From the UHGV virus genome UHGV-1290461: a DNA stretch of 18,322 nucleotides. One strand, written 5' to 3'. Shown one piece after another: positions 17,119 through 17,778 of the stretch. Under the pieces are notes generated by a model. The model saw only the letters and a list, made by a program, of their open reading frames with translations. It was not told where the DNA came from and did no database searches. Made by a program: the position numbers and the translations under genes. This DNA comes from a virus. Each line of letters starts with the position of its first letter. The stretch's first letter is position 1.

Positions 17119-17778
17119 ATGAAAATGAAATGGTATGAACTGGCTAGATCCAGAATGAAAGAGCTCGGCATAACTCAAGAGAAGTTAGCTGAAGAGCTTG
17201 GTATGACGCAGGGTGGAATTGGTCACTGGTTGCGCGGATCTCGTCATCCATCTCTTGACGAGATTGGTGTGGTGTTTAAATACCTTGGTATTGATAACGT
17301 CTCATTCAACCACGACGGTACATTTTCACCTGTTGGCGAATGCTCATCTGCCCCCGTTAAAAAACAATATGAGTACCCTGTTTTTTCTCATGTTCAGGCC
17401 GGGATGTTCTCGCCTGAGCTTAGAACCTTTACCAAAGGTGATGCGGAGAGATGGGTCAGCACAACCAAAAAAGCCAGTGATTGTGCGTTCTGGCTTGAAG
17501 TTGAAGGTAATTCCATGACCGCGCCAACAGGATCCAAGCCAAGCTTTCCTGACGGGATGTTAATTCTCGTTGACCCTGAGCAGGCTGTTGAGCCAGGTGA
17601 TTTCTGCATAGCCAGACTTGGTGGTGACGAGTTTACCTTCAAGAAACTGATCAGGGATAGCGGTCAGGTGTTCCTACAGCCACTAAACCCGCAATATCCA
17701 ATGATTCCATGCAATGATAGCTGTTCCGTAGTAGGGAAAGTTATCGCCAGCCAGTGGCCTGAAGAGACATTTAGTTAA
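17119..17778 (+). CDS. cI: CI repressor (helix-turn-helix DNA-binding domain plus LexA/S24-type autocleaving C-terminal domain)
   Basis: C-terminal ~140 aa ([38 protein letters not shown]...[11 protein letters not shown]) is nearly identical to lambda CI as recalled; the N-terminal domain is different. Start placed at the ATG at 17119 (AAGGG Shine-Dalgarno); the ORF-track start is 17077. Confidence 0.9.

Follow-up and report, generated by a model that had tools for sequence, protein, structure and literature searches.

The DNA analysed was an 18,322 nucleotide (nt) stretch of the UHGV virus genome UHGV-1290461, here called the window, which runs in the reverse of the conventional lambda map orientation. 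The subject of this analysis is its cI gene, which encodes a CI repressor of 219 amino acids (aa). The gene lies between cro and a first set of operators on one side and a terminator, a second set of operators and the beginning of the N gene on the other. The CI protein was found to be a chimera. Its N-terminal part (residues 1-83, the head) is of a non-lambda type and its C-terminal part (residues 84-219, the tail) is almost that of lambda CI. Pfam predicted HTH_3 in the head (E = 8.3e-11, residues 11-58) and Peptidase_S24 in the tail (PF00717, E = 8.9e-29, residues 87-209). The top match in a PDB sequence search was the full-length lambda repressor 3bdn (E = 2e-96). An NCBIfam search gave LexA and UmuD matches below threshold only, so CI belongs to no specific curated family. 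The coordinates of all features are given in Table 1.

The reference for lambda CI was NC_001416, 37227-37940 (NP_040628). In a global alignment the tail was identical to lambda residues 102-237 at 133 of 136 positions (98%). The earlier note on this DNA had described the C-terminal part as nearly identical to lambda CI at all but a few positions, and this description was accurate. The three differences were C122, D200 and S219 in CI for S, E and G, respectively, in lambda. The head is 83 residues long compared to 101 in lambda and gave 20 identities over 101 aligned columns (approximately 20%). It had been called unrelated to the lambda head. The low identity and the lack of detectable DNA similarity agree with this, but both heads are Pfam HTH_3 and the word was too strong.

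BLASTN against the lambda immunity region gave a single ungapped match of 405 nt within cI (93.8% identity) and no DNA match within cI upstream of 17368. Identity to lambda was also followed in 30 nt windows in an ungapped register. It rose from 5-11/30 to 28-30/30 across 17350-17365 and collapsed at 17770, at the cI stop codon. The joint precedes the cleavage site by ten codons. The earlier note had placed an in-gene junction at residues 85-95 (nt 17370-17400). A joint within the gene was present in this part of cI, but slightly upstream, at codon 84 and so at the lower edge of the proposed range. Its origin by recombination, which the note had also proposed, is supported by the abrupt DNA edges on both sides of the lambda-like patch, by a synonymous divergence (dS) of 0.34 within the patch and by upstream DNA that could not be aligned. 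The patch contained 24 synonymous and three non-synonymous differences. The non-synonymous divergence (dN) was 0.009 and dN/dS was approximately 0.03, which fits a functional gene under purifying selection.

The Ala-Gly cleavage site and the Ser/Lys dyad expected of a lambda-type repressor were located at Ala94-Gly95, Ser132 and Lys175 and were invariant in 35 of 35 homologues. The PDB entry 8gmu, which is lambda CI 101-236 and a fragment solved on the RecA filament, aligned from CI residue 84 in the PDB sequence search and was 98% identical. The first residue of the RecA-bound fragment corresponds to the joint, and the shared segment therefore contains the entire RecA-responsive unit. This agrees with the proposal that RecA-dependent induction was kept when the head was replaced. 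The identity to the 8gmu fragment suggests that RecA*-stimulated autocleavage would lead to induction of the prophage.

An AlphaFold2 model of CI was built with 35 homologues. Its mean predicted local distance difference test score (pLDDT) was 83. Residues 5-56 formed four helices in the model, and these were followed by a short hairpin and a beta-rich tail. The lambda N-terminal domain (NTD) has five helices. The loop containing the cleavage site (residues 91-102) was of low confidence. Foldseek analysis of the model gave 3bdn as the best match. The entries 8gmu, 2hnf, 1kca and 1f39 were also matched, followed by LexA and UmuD'. The tail of the model superposed on 1f39 and 1kca with a template modelling (TM) score of 0.98 and a root mean square deviation (rmsd) of 0.7 Å. 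Also among the fold matches was the lambda-186 hybrid (PDB 7jvt), an engineered protein which likewise consists of separable and exchangeable head and tail modules. CI of the window, in contrast to such laboratory hybrids, arose naturally, and its two parts meet in the linker immediately ahead of the cleavage-site region.

Table 1. Positions of the features found in the window. Strands are given relative to the window.
Feature	Position	Strand	Basis or remark
DnaC/IstB-like AAA+ loader	14666-15529	-	Domain search
O-type initiator, lambda-O family	15514-16359	-	Domain search
Three tandem repeats of 24 bp within the O gene	15911-15982	-	Encode NVSKLET repeats
cII	16394-16675	-	Domain search
nutR boxB GCCCTGAAAAAGGGC, lambda type	16752-16766	-	Read from sequence; just downstream of cro
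cro, 71 aa, HTH_3 type	16792-17007	-	Pfam HTH_3, E = 1.4e-12; outside the lambda Cro fold family
PR-like promoter TTTGCA-18-TATTAT	17063-17034	-	Promoter scan
Putative OR1 AAGTACATATCGTATTA	17035-17051	.	Motif; overlaps PR-like -10; aligns with an operator marked as putative in the VT2-Sakai and Stx1-phage records
Putative OR2 AAATACATCTTGTGCAT	17068-17084	.	Motif; 2 differences from annotated VT2-Sakai OR2
Putative OR3 TAGTACAGAGCGTAATA	17094-17110	.	Motif; overlaps likely PRM -10; 1 difference from annotated VT2-Sakai OR3
cI	17119-17778	+	Intact open reading frame, first in-frame ATG to stop, 219 aa; 217 aa if started at ATG 17125
N-terminal DNA-binding domain of non-lambda (VT2-Sa/Nil2) type with the start of the linker (residues 1-83)	17119-17367	+	Alignments
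Mosaic joint, codon 83/84 (lambda Tyr101 equivalent)	17366-17368	+	Ungapped DNA comparison with lambda and BLASTN edge
Lambda-type segment, cleavage-site region and S24 dimerisation/autocleavage domain (residues 84-219)	17368-17772	+	BLASTN
Cleavage site Ala94-Gly95	17398-17403	+	Aligns with lambda Ala111-Gly112
Ser132	17512-17514	+	Aligns with lambda Ser149
Lys175	17641-17643	+	Aligns with lambda Lys192
Intrinsic terminator after cI	17809-17830	+	Terminator scan; end also placed at 17838
Putative OL3 AAATACAAAGCGTTATA	17857-17873	.	Motif; 1 difference from annotated VT2-Sakai OL3
Putative OL2 CAATACAAAACGTTCTA (minus strand)	17890-17906	.	Motif; abuts PL -35
PL-like promoter TTGACT-17-TACTAT	17904-17932	+	Promoter scan
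Putative OL1 AAGTACAAACCGTACTA	17915-17931	.	Motif; overlaps PL -10
Lambda-type PL leader, nutL and start of N	17938-18322	+	BLASTN; 83.7% nt identity to lambda 35583-35214
nutL boxB GCCCTGAAGAAGGGC	17989-18003	+	Read from sequence
N, lambda type, truncated where the window ends	18176-18322	+	Pfam N36, E = 3.8e-27; approximately 84% DNA identity to lambda N

The operators were searched for over the whole window with the IUPAC motif RTACANNNNGTD, using 200 shuffles as a control. The motif matched eight times compared to 1.9 expected, and none of the 200 shuffles reached eight. Six of the eight matches fell in two clusters of approximately 70 base pairs (bp), at 17038-17107 in the right operator region (OR) and at 17859-17928 in the left operator region (OL). 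The six operator-like sites have the non-lambda form RTACAN4GTD. Three of these lie between cro and cI, and the other three over the PL-like promoter. A repeat search with a seed of 6 found nothing in OR, the operators sharing a degenerate core only. The six 17-mers aligned one-to-one with the six putative operators of the Shiga toxin (Stx) phage VT2-Sakai (AP000422), with one to three differences each, which lie mostly in the central bases that separate the two half-sites. Three putative operators annotated in the Stx1-converting phage likewise aligned with 17-mers of the window, again with one to three differences. In the VT2-Sakai record the repressor maintenance promoter (PRM) is placed at the OR3 position. 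Operators of lambda (TATCACCGC-type 17-mers) were not found in 16990-17130 or 17779-17960 with up to three mismatches. Elsewhere in the window there were three matches with three mismatches, which is the level of chance.

Lambda immunity was rejected for CI because of the lack of lambda operators in OR and OL. These results, with the six non-lambda sites and the HTH_3-type Cro, support a swap of immunity specificity relative to lambda, as the earlier note had suggested. The OL/PL block (approximately 17855-17950) was similar to VT2-Sakai and lambda-like sequence began at approximately 17938. The specificity elements are therefore contained in two cassettes, cro-OR-head and OL, with the lambda-type tail between them. 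Measured from centre to centre, neighbouring operators were 32 and 26 bp apart in OR. In OL the distances were 34 and 24 bp, compared to 23-24 bp in lambda. The cooperativity domain is essentially that of lambda despite this non-lambda spacing.

The cro-cI block (16792-17778) gave a continuous 92.8% match to many Stx phages, including Nil2, the Stx1-converting phage, Stx2 II, 2851 and the PA series. Cro was identical to VT2-Sakai Cro at 70 of 71 residues. The CI head was 95% identical to the heads of VT2-Sakai, the Stx1 phage, 1717 and YYZ-2008 (79/83 for the VT2-Sakai type). The differences from the VT2-Sakai type were at residues 47, 48, 61 and 75. None were in residues 18-40, leaving the helix-turn-helix stretch unchanged. 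CI differed from the Stx1-phage CI by eight aa, four of which were among the 83 residues of the head. VT2-Sakai (AP000422/AP000363), Nil2 (AJ413274), the Stx1-converting phage (NC_004913) and Stx2 II share with the window the architecture, the joint, the 249 nt head, cro and six homologous operators. On the sequence evidence, a near-identical head and Cro and homologous operator sets are both present, which would place CI in the VT2-Sakai/Nil2 immunity type. The tail allele of the Stx phages differs from the window tail at 35-36 of 411 nt and the window tail is closer to alleles with lambda heads. The flanks also differ. VT2-Sakai has a 933W/H-19B-type N and two extra open reading frames (ORFs), whereas the window has lambda-type N and nut sites and cI directly before the terminator.

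Closer relatives were found among the P22-like phages of E. coli. The tail DNA of vB_EcoP-683R2 is identical to that of the window and its head differs by 2 nt (one aa, C75Y). Among these phages, which also include 720R6, Louie, Dewey and phi458, the cro-cI-N block was 99% identical to the window. The immunity region of these P22-like relatives is essentially as in the window, while the replication genes to its left differ. Near-identical cI alleles are thus carried by the isolated and sequenced phages vB_EcoP-683R2, Louie, Dewey and phi458. Of 5,426 complete E. coli genomes, 776 carried a copy counted as full-length, which means that it covered at least 80% of the gene, and the 90% identity protein cluster containing CI had 1,686 members. 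The chimera is an old and common allele and not an event in the phage of the window. The earlier note had held that a continuous match to a single known repressor would speak against a chimera. In a formal sense such matches exist, to the CI of VT2-Sakai/Nil2 and of vB_EcoP-683R2. These proteins are the same chimera, and so the claim to novelty falls while the mosaic structure stands. Both the VT2-Sakai/Nil2-type CI and the domain mosaicism of such repressors are already known. The prior description consists of GenBank annotations, in which the gene is labelled 'similar to bacteriophage lambda CI', and of three publications (PMC2629481, PMC8951638, PMC10742460).

Repressors with at least 92% identity have been predicted to have the same target specificity (PMC2629481). 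The repressor of phage epsilon34 has a tail approximately 80% identical to lambda and a head approximately 50% identical to those of L, VT2-Sa and Nil2, and inactivation by RecA as in lambda with a different operator specificity was inferred for it (PMC2629481). Its operator consensus, WTACRAWWTGTAT (PMC2629481), resembles the TAC-N5-GTA core of the window operators. A 2022 survey placed the VT2-Sakai-type CI of Eru2/Eru3 Stx phages in Clade I together with lambda CI, at 61% overall identity (PMC8951638). VT2-Sa is treated as having six 17-bp operators, which are bound only weakly by lambda CI with a micromolar apparent dissociation constant (PMC10742460; sequences in Table S1 of that paper). 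The heads of the Salmonella phages SPN9CC, g341c and ST64T (C2) are of the same family as the window head and 54-55% identical to it. The tails of epsilon34, L/ST64T (C2), SPN9CC and g341c are 79-85% identical to lambda, compared to 98% for the window tail. The repressor heads of the Salmonella P22-like phages are predicted to have another specificity than CI of the window.

Lambda itself shares with the window the cleavage site, the Ser/Lys dyad and the gene order cro-OR-cI-terminator-OL-PL-nutL-N. It differs in a head that is 18 residues longer, in its operators, in the presence of rexAB and in a Cro that is not HTH_3. The distance between OL and OR is approximately 0.85 kb in the window and approximately 2.35 kb in lambda.

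The combination of heads and tails was compared in 120 homologues, with a lambda-type tail taken as one at least 78% identical to lambda. A search with the head only, in a collection of 5.8 billion proteins, returned only 12 fragments and was uninformative. The comparisons of heads are therefore those of a full-length protein search and of tblastn against phages. Lambda-type tails were carried by at least four head types. Proteins with the window head type were approximately 217-232 aa long, with heads 79-98% identical to the window head. A second, related type (approximately 207-232 aa) had heads approximately 52% identical to the window head. Proteins with the lambda head type were 237 aa long, with heads 63-70% identical to the lambda head. 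The fourth was an HTH_19 head type (212-215 aa), approximately 25-30% identical to both the window and lambda heads. Heads 67-82% identical to the window head were also found with tails of only 55-64% identity. In sequenced phages the identity of the tail was bimodal, with 96 records at 95% or above and then a gap down to 80-82%. The group at 95% or above contained only lambda-immune phages (lambda, HK544, HK106, HK542 and mEp234) and VT2-Sa-immune phages. The E. coli protein P0119 (214 aa) has an HTH_19-type head and a different cleavage-site region, and is 100% identical to lambda CI only from approximately FWLEVEG to the end. Its lambda identity begins there, which indicates a second position for an in-gene joint, inside the S24 domain.

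CI is read as a functional repressor, that of the prophage of a temperate, P22-like phage of E. coli, with VT2-Sakai/Nil2 immunity and a lambda-allele tail. The probability of this reading is put at roughly 0.9. CI dimers would bind the six 17-bp operators through the VT2-Sa-type head, with the half-site wArTAC and the core TAC-N5-GTA. Binding at OR and OL would shut off PR and PL and would probably autoregulate PRM. The tail would supply dimerisation as well as cooperativity, both between neighbouring pairs and over long range. When stimulated by RecA*, it would cleave itself at Ala94-Gly95 through Ser132/Lys175. Since the tail is a lambda allele from codon 84, dimerisation, cooperativity and self-cleavage should work as they do in lambda. 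The sequence relationships, the joint, the catalytic residues, the clustering of operators, the distribution of the allele and the signals of recombination are direct observations, and from these similarities we infer DNA binding, repression, cooperativity and RecA-dependent induction for CI of the window. The cro-OR-NTD cassette and the OL cassette would be the specificity modules. The tail tract, common to at least two heteroimmune groups, would be a homology bridge for reassorting them.

The history of the tail was examined in 411 nt of nine distinct alleles, four with the lambda head and five with the VT2-Sa head. A single ancient fusion followed by purely vertical descent, with the tails of the lambda-immune and VT2-Sa-immune lineages evolving separately and with no further exchange, would account for the joint position and 249 nt head shared by all VT2-Sa-type alleles examined. 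The distances among the window, the Stx1 phage and lambda (28, 29 and 35 nt) are also roughly star-like, as such descent would predict. However, the nine tails did not group according to the heads that they carry. That of the window was 24-28 nt from the alleles with lambda heads and 32-36 nt from those of the Stx phages. No difference (0/249 nt) separates the heads of the Stx1 phage, VT2-Sakai and 2B8, but the 2B8 tail was 10-11 nt from the tails of the other two. The head of E212 is 1 nt different from these three and its tail 16-21 nt from theirs. Near-identical heads (0-1 nt; Stx1 phage, 2B8 and E212) thus carry tails 10-20 nt apart. There were 52 variable tail sites in shared blocks. The four-gamete test was failed by 164 of 496 informative site pairs and the Hudson-Kaplan minimum (Rm) was six events. 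Between the window and the Stx1 phage, dS was 0.46 in the tail compared to 0.165 in the head. Vertical descent alone is considered improbable on these results. The tail was read as a conserved homology tract through which the lambda-immune and VT2-Sa-immune groups appear to keep recombining, in line with the classic picture of modular evolution. Recurrent exchange of tail DNA between these two groups is the sole addition made here to prior knowledge.

An origin of the chimera without any recombination, in which the head diverged fast under selection for a new immunity while the tail was conserved, finds some support in the generally greater variability of heads, as in relatives with approximately 52% identity in the head and 79-85% in the tail. 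It is at odds with a DNA identity that falls from approximately 94% to the level of unrelated sequence within a few bases at both ends of the patch, the edge at the stop codon being as abrupt as the upstream one, and with head lengths of 83 and 101 residues. The tail dS is also only 0.34, yet the head cannot be aligned as DNA. This origin is taken as ruled out for practical purposes, because a head inherited together with a tail at this dS would still align. Less probable again, and barely worth entertaining, is that cI is a decaying or non-functional remnant in a cryptic prophage, or an artefact of assembly. Nothing specific favours this beyond the window being a fragment. The ORF is intact with all catalytic residues and a dN/dS of approximately 0.03. 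The genes cro, cII, O, the loader gene and N are intact, as are both nut sites, PL and the terminator, and near-identical alleles occur in isolated phages and in the 776 complete genomes.

Several points weigh against the reading of CI as a VT2-Sakai/Nil2-type repressor with a working lambda-type tail that was acquired by exchange. The substitutions C122, D200 and S219 may alter the function of the tail. The operators are labelled 'putative' even in the VT2-Sakai and Stx1-phage records. The spacing of the operators is unlike that of lambda and may not guarantee lambda-like pairwise cooperativity at every pair. The recombination analysis is based on only nine distinct alleles. The exchange could not be polarised, that is, the head which first owned the tail could not be named, with at least four head types carrying lambda-type tails at similar divergence.

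Current understanding is unchanged by the analysis. Its practical value is in annotation, as the gene should be recorded as a VT2-Sa/Nil2-type CI and not as lambda immunity. The locus is a clean natural example of modular repressor evolution in which the head, cro, OR and OL have been exchanged and the SOS-sensing tail has been kept. It also places an immunity type best known from Shiga-toxin phages in circulation on P22-like phages with lambda-type N/nut control. In polylysogenic E. coli, crossovers are likely to fall in the shared tail, which may also give rise to cross-talk between repressors. CI proteins of lambda-immune and VT2-Sa-immune phages could conceivably form mixed dimers or higher-order complexes in polylysogens, with one cognate head each, although this is rather unlikely. 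If it were true, both immunities would be weaker, or the induction of one heteroimmune prophage would be linked to that of another, Stx phages included. The repeated exchange of tail DNA and the substitutions C122, D200 and S219 might then reflect selection on cross-talk.

Translation of cI may start at either of two in-frame ATGs, at 17119 and 17125. The second is the annotated cI start in the records of VT2-Sakai and vB_EcoP-683R2, and the sequence AAGGG at 17113-17117 suits a start at this codon. A possible PRM -10 element, AATAAT (17107-17112), may place the start of the transcript near 17119 and give a leaderless mRNA as in lambda. In the Stx1-phage record (L003, 1765-2460) and in P0013, the 231 aa representative of the database cluster containing CI, cI begins at an upstream TTG/ATG inside the operator region (window 17077-17127). 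These upstream starts in other records are probably over-extended annotations.

No lambda DNA match was found by BLASTN in the cro region. Immediately beyond the cro stop codon, at 16782, weak homology to lambda DNA (68%) sets in again. On the other side of cI, window 17801-17836 was 89% identical by BLASTN to lambda 35834-35799, which contains the terminator after rexB. The genes rexA and rexB are absent, and the slot between cI and OL (17779-17856) holds the terminator only. In relatives this slot contains two hypothetical ORFs (VT2-Sakai), HicAB (HK106 and mEp234) or an NYN-domain protein (2B8 record). An ORF of E212 is homologous to the 2B8 NYN-domain protein and is annotated only as hypothetical. 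Antitermination elements of lambda type (the nutR boxB, the nutL boxB and N) flank the non-lambda immunity region on both sides.

The replication module pairs an initiator of the lambda-O family with a DnaC/IstB-like loader instead of lambda P. The 24-bp repeats inside the O gene are probably the iterons of the origin. From position 1 to approximately 14400 the window carries a late region of P22-like (Lederbergvirus) type, with genes for coat, scaffold, portal, terminase and lysis and with Q and nin genes. CUS-3 and vB_EcoP-720R6 were the phages closest to this backbone. A podovirus backbone here carries an immunity type for which Stx phages are the best-known carriers.

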